Assembly (NCBI GenBank): GCA_964529155.1
Contig: CAZGVV010000016.1
Span: forward strand, 1-32,514
Direction of reading: 5' to 3'
Length of the DNA stretch: 32,514 bases
DNA from: an uncultured Rickettsiales bacterium
GTDB lineage: Bacteria > Pseudomonadota > Alphaproteobacteria > Rickettsiales > SXRF01
Made by a program: the position numbers and the translations under genes. This document shows positions 2,287 to 17,848 of this stretch, piece after piece. The number at the start of each line of letters is the position of its first letter. Position 1 is the first letter of the stretch. The notes below the pieces were generated by a model, which searched no databases, had not been told where the DNA came from, and saw only the letters and a list, made by a program, of their open reading frames with translations.

Positions 2287-3381
2287 TCAAGTAATCGCAG
2301 CATAACCGGCAATCGTCAGGCCGTAGCCCTCCAGGCCGATCACGCTGCGTTTGGTGTTGGAGAGCAGTAACATTTCGTGGACGCCAACATCCAGCAGAAT
2401 CTGGGCGCCGATACCATAATCGCGTAAATCTGCGCCGCCTTCGGGCACTTGCCCTAAGCGTGTGCGTACGCGATCAGAAATAGATGTAGACGATTCCGGC
2501 CGCAGCAGCACCACCACGCCTGCGCCTTCTTGCGCGATGCGCTGCATAGCGGCGGCAAGTACGCCGTCACGGTGTTCAAAATGATCGCCCAGCGCGTCAG
2601 CCAATAAATCCAACGCATGCATACGCACCAGCGTCGGCGTGCCCGCGGCAGGATTTCCTTTTATCAACGCGATATGTTCGGTCTGGCCCAGGCGTGTCCC
2701 ATACACAATCATCCGCCACCGCCCGCCATGCGCGCTGTCTATTTCCGTCTCCGCCAGACGATGCACCAATTTTTCCGCTCGTCTGCGATAGGCAATTAAA
2801 TCTGCGATGGTTGCCACATGCAGCCCATGCTGTTTGGCAAAGTGCAATAAATCCGGTAAGCGCGCCATCGTGCCGTCATCATTCATGACTTCGCAAATAA
2901 CACCTGCAGGATTGAGTCCGGCAAGCCGTGCAATATCCACCGCTGCTTCGGTATGTCCCGCCCGCACCAATACTCCGCCGTCACGCGCCACCAAAGGAAA
3001 CACATGCCCCGGGCTTGCAATATCTGCCGCTGTTTTTGTCGGATCAATCGCCACCTGAATCGTGCGCGCCCGGTCAGCGGCGGATATGCCAGTCGTTACT
3101 CCTTCACGCGCTTCAATCGACACAGTAAACGCCGTCTGATGCCGCGAACCGTTATGCCGCGCCATTAAATTCAAGGCCAGTTGCTCCACCCGCTCGGACG
3201 TCAACGCCAAGCAAATCAACCCGCGCCCATGCCGCGCCATGAAATTGATCGCCTCCGGCGTTGCCATTTGCGCCGGAATAATAAGGTCACCCTCATTCTC
3301 CCGGCTTTCGTCATCCACCAGAATAAACATCCTGCCCGCGCGGGCATCGTCAAGAATGGTTTCGATGGGTGAGAGGGACAT
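2287..3381 (-). CDS. ribB: 3,4-dihydroxy-2-butanone-4-phosphate synthase with a C-terminal GTP-cyclohydrolase-II-like domain
   Basis: The N-terminal half carries DHBP-synthase motifs (DDESRENEGDLI, GHTEA). The C-terminal half aligns by eye to RibA but contains no cysteine (see finding). Confidence 0.88.
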   Translation of the reverse strand: MSLSPIETILDDARAGRMFILVDDESRENEGDLIIPAQMATPEAINFMARHGRGLICLALTSERVEQLALNLMARHNGSRHQTAFTVSIEAREGVTTGISAADRARTIQVAIDPTKTAADIASPGHVFPLVARDGGVLVRAGHTEAAVDIARLAGLNPAGVICEVMNDDGTMARLPDLLHFAKQHGLHVATIADLIAYRRRAEKLVHRLAETEIDSAHGGRWRMIVYGTRLGQTEHIALIKGNPAAGTPTLVRMHALDLLADALGDHFEHRDGVLAAAMQRIAQEGAGVVVLLRPESSTSISDRVRTRLGQVPEGGADLRDYGIGAQILLDVGVHEMLLLSNTKRSVIGLEGYGLTIAGYAAIT

Positions 3382-3854
3382 CAGCCTACACTCCGCGATG
3401 ATGATGCGCCGTGTTTTTTATCAAGAGCATGCTTTGCTGCGTTAAGACCAATGATAACTAGGCTATTGCAAGTGCTTGTTTTAGGACCAAAGTCATGCGG
3501 CATGGTTATTCTATGCCAAGGTTTTTTTGCGCTATGATTAATACATAATTGTATAGAACGATCTAAGTAGGTTGGATCGTTCTTATCTAACATCATGTCT
3601 ATAGATCTTTCTGCACGTTGGCGGGCCTCTTCCAGTGCTACTGCGTCATATGCTGTAAACTCTTGTTCTCTCCACAAAGGTTGTGACGAAATAATATCCT
3701 TCTCATACACGGTGCCTTCGTATTTTTCCTGAAGATTACGTGTCCAGTCACCCGTAATAGGGCGGCGTTGCTGATTAATTGCTTTAACCATTGCTTGATA
3801 GGCAATGTCTGATAAGTATTCCAAATCGTCTTCTGGCTCTTCATTTATTGTCAT
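3381..3854 (-). CDS. hypothetical 157-aa protein (AT-rich ORFan inside the rib operon)
   Basis: The ORF is intact. Its ATG overlaps the ribE stop (ATGA) and its TGA overlaps the ribB ATG (TGATG). It is visibly AT-rich. I recognise no family motif. Confidence 0.55.
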   Translation of the reverse strand: MTINEEPEDDLEYLSDIAYQAMVKAINQQRRPITGDWTRNLQEKYEGTVYEKDIISSQPLWREQEFTAYDAVALEEARQRAERSIDMMLDKNDPTYLDRSIQLCINHSAKKPWHRITMPHDFGPKTSTCNSLVIIGLNAAKHALDKKHGASSSRSVG

Positions 3855-4453
3855 GCAGCCCTCGCAGTCAGTAATCGATCCAAATACCGCGCCAGCAAAT
3901 CCACCTCCATATTTACGTGGTCGCCAGCTTTGCGCTGCGACAATGTCGTGTTTTTCCAGCTATGCGGAATGATCGTCACGGTAAAGCGCGTGCCTTCTAC
4001 GGCATTTACGGTGAGTGAAATACCATCCAGTGTTACAGAGCCTTTAGCTGCGACAAAACGCGCTAATGCATCCGGTGCACGTAACCACAATTGATAGCTG
4101 CCCATATGCGGAATAATTTCCTCAAGCGTTGCCATCCCATCTACATGCCCGGTCACGAAATGCCCGCTTACATCGTCGCCCACTTTCAACGCGCGCTCCA
4201 AATTAATTGCATCATTCACCTGCCAACGTGGCGCGGTGCAGGCCAATGTTTCGGTCGAAAGTTCCACATCAAAATATGCAGCCCCATCATGCGTGCCTTT
4301 TTCCACCACCGTTAAGCATGCGCCATTACAGGCGATGGATTCGCCAAGCTTAAACGACGCTTCCGGCCACGCGCACGCAATGCGGATGCGTTTTGCTGCG
4401 TCGCCGCTGGCATGCGTAATCATTCCTATAGCGCTGATAATGCCGGTAAACAT
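3851..4453 (-). CDS. ribE: riboflavin synthase alpha chain
   Basis: The N-terminus MFTGII and the duplicated lumazine-binding repeats in a 200-aa protein identify it. Confidence 0.9.
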   Translation of the reverse strand: MFTGIISAIGMITHASGDAAKRIRIACAWPEASFKLGESIACNGACLTVVEKGTHDGAAYFDVELSTETLACTAPRWQVNDAINLERALKVGDDVSGHFVTGHVDGMATLEEIIPHMGSYQLWLRAPDALARFVAAKGSVTLDGISLTVNAVEGTRFTVTIIPHSWKNTTLSQRKAGDHVNMEVDLLARYLDRLLTARAA

Positions 4454-4458
4454 GGCTC

Positions 4459-5487
4459 TTATATAGCCTGATTAGCAAAGATTTCCAAGCAATCTACACC
4501 CAATTGCACCACAGATTCCTGCCGCCAGCGCGCGGTTTCTATGGTAATGCCCGGCAAACCCCCGTCACCCACCACCAGGGGAGCCCGGAACCAGTAAATC
4601 CTATCCACCAGATTTTGTTGAATAAAAGCCCCCGATAGGCTGGCCCCGGCTTCTACCATAAGCCGGGTAATCCCGCGTTCCGCCAACTGGCTCACTAATG
4701 CCGCCAACCCTTCCGGCGCTGCCTCCACCCATAATGGCACCTCATCCGCACTTTGCATTAATTTGCCATCTATGGGCATGCGTCCACGCCGATCAATCAC
4801 CACCCGCACCGGCGAGCGGTCCTCCAGGCCCGGCAGGCGACACGTCAAGAGCGGATCATCGGCCAGCACCGTTCCCATGCCGGTCAAAATCGCGTCATGC
4901 TCAGCGCGTAATACATGCCCATACGCCCGCGCAGTCTCACCGGTAAGCCAGCGGTCTTTGCCGCCGGTAATTTTTCCATCCAATGACGTGGCGATTTTCA
5001 GCGCCACATAGGGTCGCTTGCATTGCACAACGGAAAAAAATCCTTCGTTCAGCGCCTCTGCTTCGGCGCGGCGCACCTGTTCCACCACCTCAATCCCCGC
5101 CGCGCGCAATTGCGCGATGCCTTGACCATTTACGCGCGGATTCGGATCCCCGCATCCCACCACCACGCGCGCAACACCCGCGGCAATAATCGCCTGCGTA
5201 CAAGGCGGCGTTTTCCCTTCATGCGCGCATGGCTCCAGCGACACATAGAGCGTCGCTCCACGTGCGTGCGCACCTGCCATATTCAATGCTTGCGTCTCCG
5301 CATGCGGCCTGCCGCAACGCGCGGTCCAGCCCACACCGACCACATAATCCTGATTCACCACCACTGCACCCACGGCAGGGTTCGGCCATGTCTGCCCAAG
5401 ATTCCGCCGCGCTAATAGCAATGCGTGGCGCATGAACGCGGAATGATCGGATGGTTTGATGGCTTGATGGTTTGATGGTTCGAGCAT
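4459..5487 (-). CDS. ribD: bifunctional diaminohydroxyphosphoribosylaminopyrimidine deaminase / 5-amino-6-(5-phosphoribosylamino)uracil reductase
   Basis: It has the deaminase zinc motifs HAE and PCxxxxxxPPC plus a reductase C-terminal half. The first ~15 codons are encoded by an octamer repeat array, so the true start may be Met19 at 5433. Confidence 0.88.
   Translation of the reverse strand: MLEPSNHQAIKPSDHSAFMRHALLLARRNLGQTWPNPAVGAVVVNQDYVVGVGWTARCGRPHAETQALNMAGAHARGATLYVSLEPCAHEGKTPPCTQAIIAAGVARVVVGCGDPNPRVNGQGIAQLRAAGIEVVEQVRRAEAEALNEGFFSVVQCKRPYVALKIATSLDGKITGGKDRWLTGETARAYGHVLRAEHDAILTGMGTVLADDPLLTCRLPGLEDRSPVRVVIDRRGRMPIDGKLMQSADEVPLWVEAAPEGLAALVSQLAERGITRLMVEAGASLSGAFIQQNLVDRIYWFRAPLVVGDGGLPGITIETARWRQESVVQLGVDCLEIFANQAI
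5442..5481. repeat. tandem 8-bp repeat array A (aatgatcg gatggttt gatggctt gatggttt gatggttc)
   Basis: I read five phased octamers directly from the sequence. The array is inverted relative to array B at 5852-5883. Confidence 0.8.
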
Positions 5488-5897
5488 TAGAGTTTGCTAC
5501 GTAATTTATTTAGCATTGCGCCGATGGCATTATATTCGTTATCCCAATGTAAAAATTGTTCATGCGAGATATATGCAAGTGCAGCTGCATATTCAATCCA
5601 TACCAATGTTTCATTAGCGGATGCTTCAGCTATAGCAAGAAACCGTCCAAATTCAGTAATAGAGTATTTCTGCTTGGTAAAGCCTTCGGCAATATTAGCA
5701 CAAATCGATTTTGTAGCTCGGCGAAGTTGATCTGCGATAACATATTGTTCAATTTTTGGAAAACCAAGGCTTACCTTATGAACTTCAAGAGATATATTAA
5801 ATGCACGTTGATAAACCATTAGTTGTCGAAACGTAGAAACTTTTTTTGGTCGATCCATCGAATTATCGAACCATCGAACCATCGTTTCTTCGTTCAT
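5487..5897 (-). CDS. four-helix-bundle protein (23S rRNA intervening-sequence protein / Avd-like family)
   Basis: The core VYQRAF...[18 protein letters not shown]...FL.IA.AS..E is the signature I know for this family. The gene is visibly AT-rich. Its ATG overlaps the nrdR stop (ATGA) and its TAA overlaps the ribD ATG. The true start may be the internal Met14 at 5858. Confidence 0.8.
5852..5883. repeat. tandem 8-bp repeat array B (gatccatc gaattatc gaaccatc gaaccatc)
   Basis: gaaccatc is the exact reverse complement of the gatggttc unit in array A. Two more degenerate units follow, up to 5897. Confidence 0.8.
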
Positions 5898-6349
5898 CGC
5901 TCGTCACCAAGCTCACCGACGATTTCTTCAAAATCCTTGGCTTCAGTAAAATCGCGATACACCGACGCAAAGCGAATATATGCCACGCTATCTAAGCTCC
6001 GCAATTCATCCATCACCGTTTTGCCGATGAAGCCGGTGGGGATTTCGCTCTCACCCGTGGATTCCAATTTCTGCACGATGCGTGTAGCAATCTGTTCGAT
6101 CTGCTCATCCGGCACCGGACGTTTGCGCAGCGCAATCGCTAGTGCGCGAACAATTTTTTCCCGGTCAAAAATGCGCCGCTCACCATTTTTCTTCACCACC
6201 ACCAGCTCGCGCAATTGCACGCGCTCAAACGTCGTGAACCGCGAATTACACGCCGTGCAATACCGCCGCCGCCGAATCGCCGACCCATCCTCACTCGGAC
6301 GAGAATCTTTCACCTGCGTATCACCGTGGCCGCAAAAGGGACATTTCAT
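5894..6349 (-). CDS. nrdR: transcriptional repressor NrdR
   Basis: It starts MKCPFCG, has a second CxxC zinc ribbon and an ATP-cone, and is 151 aa. Confidence 0.93.
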
Positions 6350-6364
6350 GAAAAGGGCTCGTGA

Positions 6365-7681
6365 TTAATGGTTGGAAGGTAGCGAAGCATAAATCGGAAA
6401 CCGCTCACACAGCTTCTTCACTTCGGCTTTCGCTTTTGCCTCTGCTGCGGAATTGTCGTCGCCGTGTGCACTCAGCCCGTCCAATACGTCGCCGATCAAT
6501 TCGCCGATCTGCTTGAACTCCGCCACGCCAAATCCGCGCGTGGTTCCCGCCGGTGTACCTAAGCGAATGCCGCTGGTGATCGCCGGTTTTTCCGGGTCAA
6601 ACGGAATGGCATTTTTGTTGCAGGTGAGGCCTGCCCGCTCCAGGCTGGCTTCCGCTGCTTTGCCGGTGATCTTTTTCGGACGCAAATCCACCAGCATCAA
6701 ATGGCAATCCGTGCCGCCGGTCGTAATTGCAAGCCCACGTGAAACCAGTGTCGCGGCAAGTGCCTGCGCATTATCTATCACCGCCTTACCATATGCCTTA
6801 AATTCCGGCTTCAGTGCTTCGCCAAAGGCCACGGCTTTACCGGCAATTACATGCATCAATGGCCCGCCTTGTAGGCCTGGGAAAATCGCTGAATTGATTT
6901 TCTTGGCGATTTCGGCGTCATTGGTCAGAATCATGCCGCCGCGCGGACCACGCAATGTTTTATGCGTTGTCGTCGTTACCACATGCGCATGCGGGAACGG
7001 GGAGGGGTAAACGCCCGCCGCAACCAACCCAGCAAAGTGCGCCATATCCACCATCAAGAGTGCACCCACGCTGTCAGCGATCTGACGCAAGCGTGCAAAA
7101 TCAATCACGCGCGGATAGGCTGAACAGCCGCCGATAATCAATTTCGGTTTATGCTCAACTGCCAGTTTCGCCACTTCATCATAATCAATCAGCGCATCTT
7201 TTTCGCGCACACCATACGTCACAGCATTAAACCATTTGCCCGACATGTTCACGCTTGCGCCGTGCGTCAAATGCCCGCCTGCAGCAAGCGAAAGTCCAAG
7301 AAATGTATCGCCGGGTTTCAGCAGCGCTAAAAACACGCCCTGATTGGCTTGCGAGCCGGAATTGGGCTGCACGTTGGCGAATTCACAATGAAATAATTTC
7401 TTTGCCCGCTCAATGGCCAGTGTCTCCGTTTCATCGACATATTCACAGCCGCCATAATAGCGTTTACCCGGATACCCTTCGGCATATTTATTGGTCAGCA
7501 CCGAGCCTTGCGCCTCCAGCACAGCGCGGCTTACAATGTTCTCACTCGCAATCAATTCGATCTGCGATTGCTGACGTTTCAACTCATGGGCAATGGTGGC
7601 GGCGAGTTCGGGGTCGGCTTGATTCAACGCAATATCAAAAAACGCATGCATGGTAGTGGATTCCTTTTTTGCCTGTAACAT
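6365..7681 (-). CDS. glyA: serine hydroxymethyltransferase
   Basis: It contains the SHMT motif [19 protein letters not shown] lies 7 nt upstream of the ATG at 7681. Confidence 0.95.
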
Positions 7682-15457: not shown

Positions 15458-15500
15458 GGTTGCGAGCAGGGTAAACTACTCGCAACCCGCAACTCGCAAC
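15458..15500. repeat. 9-bp stem hairpin plus three tandem (c/t)cgcaac heptamers, directly after the fossil ilvC stop codon
   Basis: ggttgcgag (15458-15466) pairs with ctcgcaacc (15479-15487) across a 12-nt loop. The tandem units are ctcgcaac, ccgcaac and tcgcaac (15479-15500). Confidence 0.7.
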
Positions 15501-16732
15501 TAATTCTTCGCCTTATCCACCAGCTTGTATTTATATTCTAAAGTACCTGAACCTTCACATACTGGAAGATAAAGGAAATCGTCAGCTTGTATAATGATCT
15601 CATGATTAAGAGCCAATCCAACAGGAATCATCCATTTCCAACAGTTTTTATTCGCTACCCACGCAATATTTTCATTAATAGCTCTTTCTTCTAATTTTTG
15701 AGTAAGTGCTTGTTCTAGCCTATCAAGCCAATCGCAAAAATCATTTAAAATATTTCGTAAGGATTCAAACAAGTATATAATGCGTTCCTCTGGGTCTTGA
15801 GGCTTTTCAGAATTTTTGAGTTCTTCTATAAGGCTCTTATAAGTTTTGAGTGGGTTGTTGTGAGGCAATATTGGAGTTTGTTCCCTTGCATCCTTTAGCA
15901 GCTCTTCAAGCTTGTCTGGTTGATATTTCTTATGCCCCTTTATGCTGGCAGTGAGTTCCTTGGAAAATTTCTTTTTATCATCAAAGTATTGCCCTAGGGT
16001 TCCATTTTTTCCTACCCCCAATGCCTTATTGATTGCTATTGCTGCGTGTTGCCTTTGAGTGGAAGCCACTTCCTCTGCAAACATTGCATCTATAAATTTA
16101 CTCACCTGAAACTCAAAAGAATCTTCTATAAAATATCTAATTATTCCCATAATAAGTATTTTAGATTCGTCATCCTTTTGCTCACCTTGAAAGTTAATAT
16201 TATCAGGATAGTGAATTAGTCTTTGTCTAATGCCTGTGTAAGGAGCAAGTGCTAATTTCCACCAAGATTCATTATTTTCTAATTCTTTAAGTAGCTCTCT
16301 AACATTTGAAAACTTATCTGCTTCGCTTATTACATGAGTTTTAAAGCTATATCTTTTGGGAATACTTTCGCCATAAATATAGCGAATAAGCTTCCCGATA
16401 TTATCAGTTAATATGCTGAGGTAATTAAATAATGAATAAGTAGCCATTTCTGCTTTTTGTTGATTTAAAAATGCTGTGTGCAATGCAATTCCCGAATTAT
16501 AAAGTTTTTCTAATTCGAGAGAGGCTTCTTGCAGAAGTTCTAATGAGAAAAGAAATTTTTGTGCTATCTGACGATTATGAAATTCAAGCTGATGAATGTC
16601 CTTATTATCTGGATTAAAAATAGTAATATCATTGAATAAATGGTGTATTCCAAAAAGAAAAAAAGGAACGCCGGATTTAAGATAATCCGGCGTTCCTTTT
16701 TCCCAGCGGAATAAACCATGCCGTTTTGGCAT
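15500..16732 (-). CDS. hypothetical 410-aa protein (strongly AT-rich ORFan); start uncertain
   Basis: This is a long intact ORF. A hand count gives 17/60 G+C at 16141-16200, against 39/60 in ilvC at 17281-17340. It contains GIRQRLIHYP (an R-x4-H motif). An intrinsic terminator lies inside its first ~80 nt, and the next in-frame ATG is codon 96. Confidence 0.6.
   Translation of the reverse strand: MPKRHGLFRWEKGTPDYLKSGVPFFLFGIHHLFNDITIFNPDNKDIHQLEFHNRQIAQKFLFSLELLQEASLELEKLYNSGIALHTAFLNQQKAEMATYSLFNYLSILTDNIGKLIRYIYGESIPKRYSFKTHVISEADKFSNVRELLKELENNESWWKLALAPYTGIRQRLIHYPDNINFQGEQKDDESKILIMGIIRYFIEDSFEFQVSKFIDAMFAEEVASTQRQHAAIAINKALGVGKNGTLGQYFDDKKKFSKELTASIKGHKKYQPDKLEELLKDAREQTPILPHNNPLKTYKSLIEELKNSEKPQDPEERIIYLFESLRNILNDFCDWLDRLEQALTQKLEERAINENIAWVANKNCWKWMIPVGLALNHEIIIQADDFLYLPVCEGSGTLEYKYKLVDKAKN
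16651..16701 (-). terminator. rho-independent terminator following ilvC
   Basis: A perfect 17-bp inverted repeat (16661-16677 / 16684-16700) encloses a 6-nt loop. On the minus strand it is followed by tttcttttt, and it begins ~35 nt after the ilvC stop. Confidence 0.75.
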
Positions 16733-16735
16733 AGT

Positions 16736-17848
<1,113 letters not shown>

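Follow-up and report, generated by a model that had tools for sequence, protein, structure and literature searches.

Intervening sequences (IVSs) that contain an open reading frame (ORF) are found in the 23S ribosomal RNA (rRNA) genes of Leptospira, Coxiella burnetii and Haemophilus, at helix 45 or helix 25, and are excised by RNase III. For around 30 years they have been treated as a peculiarity of rRNA genes, and there are in addition scattered paralogues outside rRNA genes that are annotated 'four helix bundle protein'. Here we describe one such paralogue in 32,514 nucleotides of DNA from an uncultured Rickettsiales bacterium (assembly GCA_964529155.1, contig CAZGVV010000016.1, positions 1 to 32,514; this whole stretch is the window in what follows), where the gene lies between nrdR and ribD and is bracketed by inverted arrays of an 8-bp tandem repeat. 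Gene and arrays together form a cassette that has been inserted with precise borders and that is a local example of a widespread, apparently undescribed arrangement.

Two described systems come closest. In the C. burnetii IVS, the heptamer GACAGAT is found in two to three tandem copies, depending on the strain, followed by a degenerate GACAGAA right before the start of the ORF, and the 5' cut made by RNase III has been mapped to the start of the first tandem repeat (PMC4990558). In Geobacter metallireducens, paired 'global regulator binding sites' have been reported that are inverted with respect to one another, each comprising 3-5 tandem hepta- or octanucleotides (GTTGCTYN, TCTCCGTS and MTYCTGA); the pairs sit between genes, also within operons such as proB-proA and moaA-mosC (Aklujkar et al. 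2009, PMC2700814).

The window cassette resembles a 23S rRNA IVS in encoding an S23p (PF05635) protein, in having an ORF that exactly fills the loop of a long (here predicted) stem with inverted flanks, in the short tandem repeats beside the S23p start with their purine-rich 5' side, in lacking a promoter of its own and in its sporadic presence and absence among relatives. It differs in lying between the cistrons of an mRNA operon, whereas an IVS replaces the tip of an rRNA helix, in having start and stop codons that overlap those of the host genes and in its repeat period, which is 8 in most operon copies and 7 in the IVS. The operon copies also lack the preference for pairing in the sense over the antisense strand, and their ORF is under purifying selection where that of Coxiella is reported to be decaying. 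Since location within 23S rRNA is the defining criterion, we do not count the cassette as a member of the rRNA IVSs.

A precise insertion between nrdR and ribD

The features of the locus, in the order in which they would be transcribed, are as follows.

6365-7681, minus strand: glyA
5894-6349, minus strand: nrdR, the upstream gene of the junction (Pfam Zn_ribbon_NrdR and ATP-cone)
5444-5893, minus strand: the whole cassette, 450 bp, comprising a 10-nt leader, 5' repeat arm, ORF, 3' repeat arm and 6-nt tail
5886-5897, minus strand: 5' half of the stem base (AUGAACGAAGAA), including the nrdR stop codon and the cassette ATG
5487-5897, minus strand: four-helix-bundle ORF (S23p / 23S_rRNA_IVP / TIGR02436), 136 amino acids (aa), starting at this ATG or at Met6 (5882) or Met14 (5858)
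5850-5884, minus strand: 5' arm in the transcript, about four octamers (GATGGTTC GATGGTTC GATAATTC GATGGATC), encoding ORF residues 6-16
5450-5481, minus strand: 3' arm in the transcript (GAACCATC AAACCATC AAGCCATC AAACCATC), beginning 6 nt past the ORF stop codon
5432-5443, minus strand: 3' half of the stem base (UUCCGCGUUCAU), made of the 10-nt host spacer and the first two bases of the native ribD ATG
4459-5487, minus strand: long ribD ORF
4459-5433, minus strand: ribD from its native start, ATG 5431-5433, which is Met19 of the long ORF (Pfam deaminase and RibD_C domains)
3851-4453, minus strand: ribE

An initial annotation of the window, made from the letters alone, had reported this gene order, the overlapping start and stop codons, the AT-richness of the gene and the phased, inverted octamer arrays, and all of these statements check out. 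The ATG of the bundle ORF overlaps the nrdR stop codon (ATGA, 5894-5897), its TAA overlaps the ATG with which the long ribD frame begins (TAATG, 5485-5489) and its GC content is 0.36-0.38 against 0.55-0.62 in the flanking sequence. The same annotation had gone on to propose a discrete ORF-in-a-stem cassette within an mRNA operon, and this is borne out by the empty and filled alleles described below together with the ORF and arms that the cassette shares with 23S rRNA IVSs.

The nrdR-ribD junction was compared in contigs of relatives retrieved through a search for NrdR homologues. At loci L089 and L091 (L numbers denote individual loci throughout), whose NrdR proteins are 83-84% identical to that of the window, the TGA of nrdR is followed by 10 nt (CCTCGCCTTC or TCTGCTGTTC) and then by ATGCGCCAC of ribD, with no insert. 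In the window, TTCCGCGTTC precedes the same ATGCGCCAC, and all of the sequence from there to the nrdR TGA is extra. As the two relatives carry only a 10-nt spacer between the nrdR TGA and ATGCGCCAC, the borders of the insert can be placed at 5444-5893. A filled allele is seen at L088 (NrdR 83% and bundle protein 64% identical), where a cassette occupies the identical site with the same ATGA overlap and has arms that read GATGATTC... on one side and GAATCATC, GAACCATC... on the other.

The 10-nt host spacer of the window is homologous to the CCTCGCCTTC or TCTGCTGTTC of the empty sites, and the 10 nt that follow the nrdR stop codon are an inverted copy of it, identical at 8/10 positions. The predicted stem is thereby lengthened as far as the nrdR stop codon and the start of ribD, the two halves of its base (5886-5897 and 5432-5443) being able to pair at 10/12 positions. 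Above this base the two octamer arrays are inverted with respect to one another (GATGGTTC in one, RAACCATC in the other). Tandem Repeats Finder reports both with a period of 8, at 5450-5480 (GATGGTTT, 3.9 copies) and 5850-5884 (TCGAACCA, 4.4 copies). Their complementarity is 100% over 10 nt, 85% over 26 nt and 74% over 53 nt (a match that includes 5450-5502), and an ungapped alignment of the 3' arm with the 5' arm gives 29/37 complementary positions. Rfam at its gathering thresholds finds no match in the window and thus no rRNA.

Might the octamers have arisen by chance, or be no more than the usual coding sequence of RibD and the bundle protein, with the gene a resident accessory gene? The annotated ORFs do translate the arrays, and lone GATGGTTN arrays with no partner array and no bundle-protein gene are present in many unrelated metagenomic contigs. 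Against this, the pattern GATGRTYNGATGRTY with at most one mismatch is matched 11 times in the window where 0.11 matches are expected, all of them at the cassette or at 17772-17839, and matching arms flank nearly every member of the family. The empty site is precise, and the RibD proteins of L089 and L091 begin M-R-H-A-L at the equivalent ATG, without the extension that the array encodes in the window. Pattern counts, family-wide arms, empty sites and array-free RibD proteins together refute this explanation, to which we give virtually no credence. Because the RibD of the relatives begins at the equivalent ATG, the native start in the window is ATG 5431-5433, as the initial annotation had suspected, and codons 1-18 (5434-5487) of the long ORF result from reading the 3' arm in frame. 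A similar suggestion for the bundle protein, that it truly starts at Met14, fared less well: L088 has no equivalent Met, so that the start there must be M1 or M6, within the array.

Judged by profile scores, the ORF is clearly a member of the PF05635/TIGR02436 family, the rRNA-IVS family to which it had first been assigned. It matches PF05635 with an E value of 7e-31 and 107 bits (cut-off 33.8), residues 24-131 aligning to profile positions 1-106, and TIGR02436 with 104 bits (cut-off 24). Its length of 136 aa is within the 110-140 aa or so that is usual for the family. Among solved structures its sequence matches those of two pentameric homologues, PDB entries 2gsc (E 3.6e-9) and 2rld (E 4e-6). 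The conserved core begins near residue 24, and an alignment of 25 sequences has 24 invariant columns, including FPK.EQ, RR..S/K and C.N..EGF. The N-terminal extensions of many homologues (MIDDPMIR, MSDDQMTDDPMIR and MNDESMNR) are translated octamers of the GATGATCN type.

The family is distantly related in its four-helix-bundle fold to Avd, the accessory protein of diversity-generating retroelements (DGRs), PF05635 and Avd being structurally related and solved homologues pentameric (PMC10053308; compare the match to 2gsc). Weak similarity to the bAvd profile PF22296 (E 8e-4) and to NF033474 could be taken to mean that the window gene is the Avd factor of a DGR remnant. Its scores fall far below the curated cut-offs (20.3 bits against 40 for PF22296 and 25.3 against 80 for NF033474) and its genomic surroundings bear no resemblance to those of Avd: it directly adjoins nrdR and ribD, none of the window ORFs examined of at least 130 aa stands out as a reverse transcriptase, and apart from the octamer arms no repeats were found around the gene. 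We reject this identification on the scores and the neighbours, and consider its chances negligible.

Armed cassettes in rRNA genes and at operon junctions

We compared 84 related loci, of which 80 are genome loci from a one-genome-per-species scan of 288 relatives, allowing repeat periods of 6-9. Inverted period-7 or period-8 arrays flank the ORF at nearly all 84, with inverted-repeat scores mostly of 14-44 against a 99th percentile of 10.8 for the null, so the pairing of gene with arrays that was first noticed in the window recurs around nearly all other copies. Around 45 of the 80 genome loci are inside 23S rRNA genes, at the helix-45 site with a few near helix 25. The repeats at these rRNA loci are heptamers (5' ACAGAGG, ACAGAAG or ACAGATG; 3' CCTCTGT and similar) that resemble the GACAGAT repeats of Coxiella. 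At the non-rRNA loci they are mostly octamers. Since the ORF and the repeat arms are common to both, the window cassette is, on sequence grounds, homologous as a whole unit to the ORF-bearing rRNA IVS.

Outside rRNA genes the flanking genes were identified by Pfam, and the following junctions are occupied (upstream gene first).

fabI (fabI-like) and aroC: L001, L008
atpG and atpD: L005, L007, L012, L013, L015
frr and uppS: L016, L018, L019, L027, L038
accB and accC: L029, L053, L077, L082
tolB and pal: seven Mesorhizobium species
transketolase N half and C half: L047
sdhA as downstream gene: L050
sucC and sucD: L075
nuoC and nuoD: L076
def and fmt: L025, L083
rpoC as downstream gene: L014
bamB and der: L067
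imuB and dnaE2: L041
a peptidyl-prolyl isomerase gene and an alpha-amylase-family gene: L034, L043

Placement is recurrently intercistronic and co-oriented. In every case with both flanking genes identified, the cassette has the orientation of both neighbours and the intercistronic gap is short. The 3' arm of operon copies sets in 0-31 nt past the stop codon, and the ORF is AT-richer than its flanks in 36/36, by a mean of 12 points. Contigs carrying close homologues have the gene at atpG-atpD (in two lineages) and between the fabI-like gene and aroC, with inverted octamer arrays on either side.

While the arms differ between elements, their complementarity is kept. More than 10 repeat units are in use (GATGATCN, GATGAATC, GATGGTTC, GGAATCTC, GAGGAACT, GGGGAATT, TTAGTGAT, GGAGGACT, GCTGATTG, CGTTTTCT and GGTTGGAT), and within each element the 5' consensus agrees at 6-8 of the 8 positions with the 3' consensus read in reverse complement. 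The mean arm score is 19.7 for an element's own pair and 8.5 for pairs made across elements. One metagenome-assembled genome hosts two cassettes, L009 and L075, with different repeats. In the Mesorhizobium tolB-pal orthologues, where the proteins are 98-99% identical, the order and number of units differ and the arms are still complementary at 28/28 or 35/38 positions; that near-identical proteins carry different yet complementary arms shows that the arms turn over fast and in concert. Some arms match perfectly (37/37 at L053 and 28/28 at L062). We also considered whether the number of repeats is matched to the protein pentamer, but there is no five-unit rule, arms having from ~2 to ~16 units. 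The 5' arm is purine-rich in 33/36 operon copies and 25/25 rRNA copies, and is often Shine-Dalgarno (SD)-like (GGAGGA, GAGGAA, GGGGAA) or contains an ATG, with 3' arms that are CCTCC-like.

Purifying selection on the cassette ORFs shows in codon comparisons, the ratio of nonsynonymous to synonymous divergence (dN/dS) being 0.02-0.19 wherever dS is unsaturated. In a rough neighbour-joining tree, built without bootstrap and used qualitatively, the proteins cluster by insertion site and repeat type: those of the window and L088 belong with other GATG-type cassettes in a clade found at five or more different junctions, and the rRNA-borne proteins form clades of their own amid the operon-borne ones.

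A scan of metagenomes with the exact octamer pattern GATGGTTNGATGGYTNGATGG gave at least 120 matches, mostly lone arrays. The octamer alone is therefore not diagnostic, as most of these matches lack both a partner array and a bundle-protein gene. Among the matches listed, only two are informative: L124, an ORF-less hairpin of similar inverted arrays, and L155, a distant full cassette. The latter (100-760; protein 31% identical) is on an AT-rich metagenomic contig and has arrays of GGTTGGAT/GGTTAAAT, ~10 copies, and AACCATCC/AACCATTT, ~16 copies, so that the octamer-armed form extends as far as a distant family member whose host has a very different base composition.

Among the rRNA copies, L046 and L074, in the helix-25 region of 23S rRNA, have arms of the GAAGTCA / TCAGAAA type facing TTCCGAC / TTTCCGA. 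On the sense strand every heptamer of these arms shows a single, systematic A.C mismatch, which would be a G.U pair on the antisense.

Possible RNA-level and DNA-level roles of the arms

We think it reasonably probable that the window carries, at 5444-5893, an IVS-type cassette within an mRNA operon, the arms of which pair in the transcript and which is probably processed by RNase III. Being co-oriented with its neighbours and lacking its own promoter and terminator (a scan of 5200-6500 found nothing resembling either), the cassette would be transcribed as part of the glyA-nrdR-ribD-ribE operon. In the transcript, the octamer arms and the 12 nt at their base would pair into an imperfect duplex of ~45 bp with the ORF looped out, bringing the nrdR stop codon next to the ribD start. 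By analogy with the rRNA IVSs, such a duplex is probably a substrate of RNase III, cleavage by which would free the ORF RNA and divide the operon mRNA with both host cistrons left intact. On uncut RNA, the ATGA and TAATG overlaps could hand ribosomes from nrdR to the cassette ORF and on to ribD. The cassette protein is retained by selection. We infer, then, a stem in vivo, its cleavage by RNase III, a translational relay and some mechanism of mobility.

RNA folding agrees with the first steps of this scheme. The initial annotation had aligned the arrays by hand and supposed a long stem with the ORF in its loop, and the minimum free energy (MFE) structure predicted for 5425-5905 (minus strand) indeed closes a ~45-bp interrupted stem between the arrays, with the ORF in the loop (z = -3.55). 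The MFE structures of operon cassettes close the arms in 34/35 folds; the median number of long-range pairs is 45, and falls to 16 with a swapped 3' flank. In helix-45 IVSs the sense arm duplex is more stable than the antisense in 18/21 (p = 0.002), and transition mismatches between the arms of rRNA copies are of the G.U type in 25 cases and of the A.C type in 16.

A number of observations weigh against this interpretation. With swapped flanks, 15 or more long-range pairs are still formed in 19/35 folds, so closure of the arms in an MFE structure counts for little by itself. Strand bias is absent from the operon copies, the sense duplex being the more stable in 15 and the antisense in 20 (p = 0.77), and their transition mismatches divide into 40 of the G.U and 41 of the A.C type. 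In the window itself it is the antisense arm duplex that is much the more stable (-54.7 against -35.5 kcal/mol for the sense). Such strand-symmetric complementarity means that a process or function at the level of DNA could keep the arms matched. At nrdR-ribD, stem formation and RNase III cleavage are argued by analogy. For Coxiella, the homologous ORF is reported to be in decay and probably not translated (PMC4990558), a caution against extending a single function to every copy. Finally, in the one comparison available, of the filled window with the empty L089 and L091, there is no target-site duplication at nrdR-ribD.

Two of the measures tried proved of limited use. The G.U and A.C counts are too weak to decide between RNA and DNA, the duplex energies being more informative, and duplex folding on wide flanks over-extended the pairings into unrelated sequence, so that the pair counts it gave were discarded.

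A serious rival is a DNA-level element, which we regard as possible though not probable. The arms would be terminal structures, either a hairpin or cruciform or an array of repeated protein-binding sites, used in moving or copying the cassette, their complementarity would be maintained by hairpin-templated repair or gene conversion, and an RNA stem would be a by-product. This would accommodate the strand symmetry of the operon arms and the better pairing of the antisense strand in the window, and the rapid turnover of arms that nevertheless often match perfectly, as at L053 and L062, fits templated homogenisation. Presence/absence polymorphism among relatives, the occurrence of one GATG-arm protein clade at five or more junctions and the existence of ORF-less copies, which recall miniature inverted-repeat transposable elements (MITEs), point the same way, and the older literature saw IVSs as remnants of transposition (cited in PMC4990558). 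The cassette encodes no transposase or integrase, however, and the missing target-site duplication counts against a DNA element too. Arm sequences vary widely, even within one genome (L009 compared with L075), which argues against a single sequence-specific enzyme. Orientation with the host operon and a purine-rich 5' arm are both fixed where a symmetric DNA element would need neither, and the rRNA copies favour the sense strand.

An RNA stem might also form without being excised by RNase III. It could resemble the hairpins of repetitive extragenic palindromic (REP) sequences and bacterial interspersed mosaic elements (BIMEs), stabilising the upstream mRNA against 3' exonucleases, or it could insulate the cistrons from one another or gate translation of the cassette ORF. 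The SD-like or AUG-containing, purine-rich 5' arms facing anti-SD-like (CCTCC-like) 3' arms would suit such a role, as would the ORF-less hairpins of the same repeats in intercistronic spacers (ilvH-ilvC in the window and after sucD in L075) and the dozens of paired arrays between genes of G. metallireducens, including proB-proA (PMC2700814). Against such a stem, 35-45 bp falls comfortably inside the size range of duplexes that RNase III cuts. The enzyme also acts on the rRNA homologues of the cassette (PMC4990558), and a sense-strand stability bias is absent from the operon copies. On balance we consider a stem without excision unlikely.

Returning to an IVS-type cassette that pairs in the transcript, a much broader version can be entertained, tentatively and with a good deal of doubt. 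S23p cassettes may make up a single, widespread class of mobile elements that reside in transcripts, the rRNA IVSs being just one of their niches. The conserved, probably pentameric bundle protein would recognise its own arms, as RNA duplex or as DNA hairpin, and so drive processing or spread between highly expressed transcripts, and the ORF-less hairpins, which are found here and there in operons, in rRNA operons and also within coding sequences, would be non-autonomous derivatives.

Related elements and neighbouring insertions

Besides the full copy, the 32.5 kb of the window contain an ORF-less one built of other octamers; there is no transposase in the cassette. The second copy had also been noted in the initial annotation and is real.

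17772-17848, minus strand: ORF-less inverted array of four GATGATCN, a 13-nt loop and four NGATCATC, filling the ilvH-ilvC spacer (flanks identified by Pfam)

The hairpin it would form has a predicted energy of -29.6 kcal/mol, and its polarity is that of the cassettes, GATGATCN coming first on the gene strand. The octamer GATGATCN also flanks full cassettes in L005, L013 and L009.

Further ORF-less arrays are present elsewhere. In L075 and L080, an inverted octamer hairpin (4285-4367) follows directly after sucD and is of the same repeat type as the sucC-sucD cassette on the same contig. Several additional pairs of ORF-less inverted heptamer arrays are found elsewhere in the IVS-carrying rRNA operons of L032-L036, L040, L044, L058 and L079. 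In L092 and L093, ORF-less inverted heptamer arrays (ATTCGGG... / AATCCCC..., 4793-4867) lie in frame within ribE, adding ~23 residues.

The paired sites of G. metallireducens and the ORF-less arrays described here look like the same thing: the former resemble 17772-17848, L075 and L124, and the window arms at 5450-5481 and 5850-5884 also fit their description. The Geobacter pairs differ in having been described only as DNA motifs for IHF- or HU-like proteins, with no link to an IVS protein or an RNA stem (PMC2700814), and the supplements of that paper nowhere use the terms 'S23', 'intervening' or 'four-helix'.

Other classes of element share some of these properties. REP/BIME elements and MITEs are likewise short inverted-repeat elements in intercistronic spacers, co-transcribed with operons, and the ORF-less copies recall them; the copy in frame inside ribE of L092 is reminiscent of the Rickettsia palindromic elements. 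What sets the cassettes apart are arms built of 7-8-nt tandem units that vary by element and, in full copies, a conserved non-transposase gene, with no RAYT or transposase partner identified. The inverted arms also correspond to the terminal inverted repeats of transposable elements and MITEs, although in the cassettes these consist of tandem units specific to each element. Free-standing selfish genes, such as the homing-endonuclease genes of phage and rRNA operons, are also promoterless, AT-richer than the host, co-oriented and inserted without disruption at junctions of highly conserved, highly expressed genes. The cassette differs from these in having no nuclease domain, and the repeat stem that brackets it is distinctive.

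How new is the arrangement? The initial annotation had thought it undescribed, and this holds in part. The building blocks have been reported, as heptamers in the Coxiella IVS stem (PMC4990558) and as paired arrays in Geobacter (PMC2700814). Full-text searches of the literature, with subscription-only papers such as Ralph & McClelland 1993 outside their reach, found no description of operon-borne IVS cassettes. Nor did they find non-rRNA paralogues treated as complete IVS-like units with inverted tandem-repeat arms, co-oriented placement at core-operon junctions with filled and empty alleles, changing yet complementary arms or the accompanying ORF-less hairpins. One such gene, between gmk and nadD, has been listed without comment as part of a 'phage region' (PMC5524665).

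The comparison recasts IVSs as a general class of promoterless elements living in host transcripts. The unit of ORF and repeat stem is found at precise junctions of core operons (atp, acc, suc, sdh, nuo, def-fmt, frr-uppS, tolB-pal and nrdR-ribD) in many bacteria, and its hosts include culturable ones such as Mesorhizobium and Micavibrio (M. aeruginosavorus has it at accB-accC), where the protein is evidently functional. There are consequences for annotation as well, in that the N-termini of neighbours such as RibD have been wrongly lengthened through the arms and cassettes have sometimes been mistaken for phage regions.

Several other insertions, or candidates for them, lie close to these loci. 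In L007, a GIY-YIG gene and an acetyltransferase gene (5931-6774) are situated between atpD and atpC, in the same atp operon that holds an atpG-atpD cassette. In the window, an AT-rich 410-aa ORF (15500-16732, minus strand, considered with 16736-16770 and 15481-15501; GC 0.33-0.36) with no significant Pfam match begins 3 nt after ilvC. The peptide KLVDKAKN* ends both IlvC and the 410-aa protein, its codons being AT-rich in the ilvC copy and host-like in the other. This ORF looks like an element inserted in the 3' end of ilvC that brought with it a replacement C-terminus, and a hairpin with three GTTGCGA units follows it.

Also in the window, a 157-aa ORF with no Pfam match (3381-3854, minus strand) separates ribE from ribBA, with stop and start codons that overlap. 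L092 has ribE, 66 nt and ribBA, without the ORF, and the 157-aa ORF is, from its sequence context, a second intra-operon insertion in the rib operon. The nrdR-ribD spacer of L092 is 125 nt long (3460-3584) and contains a different long inverted repeat (tgtcatcccggcgaaggccgggatcc ... ggatcccgtg ... cacgggatgac) that is not built of octamers.

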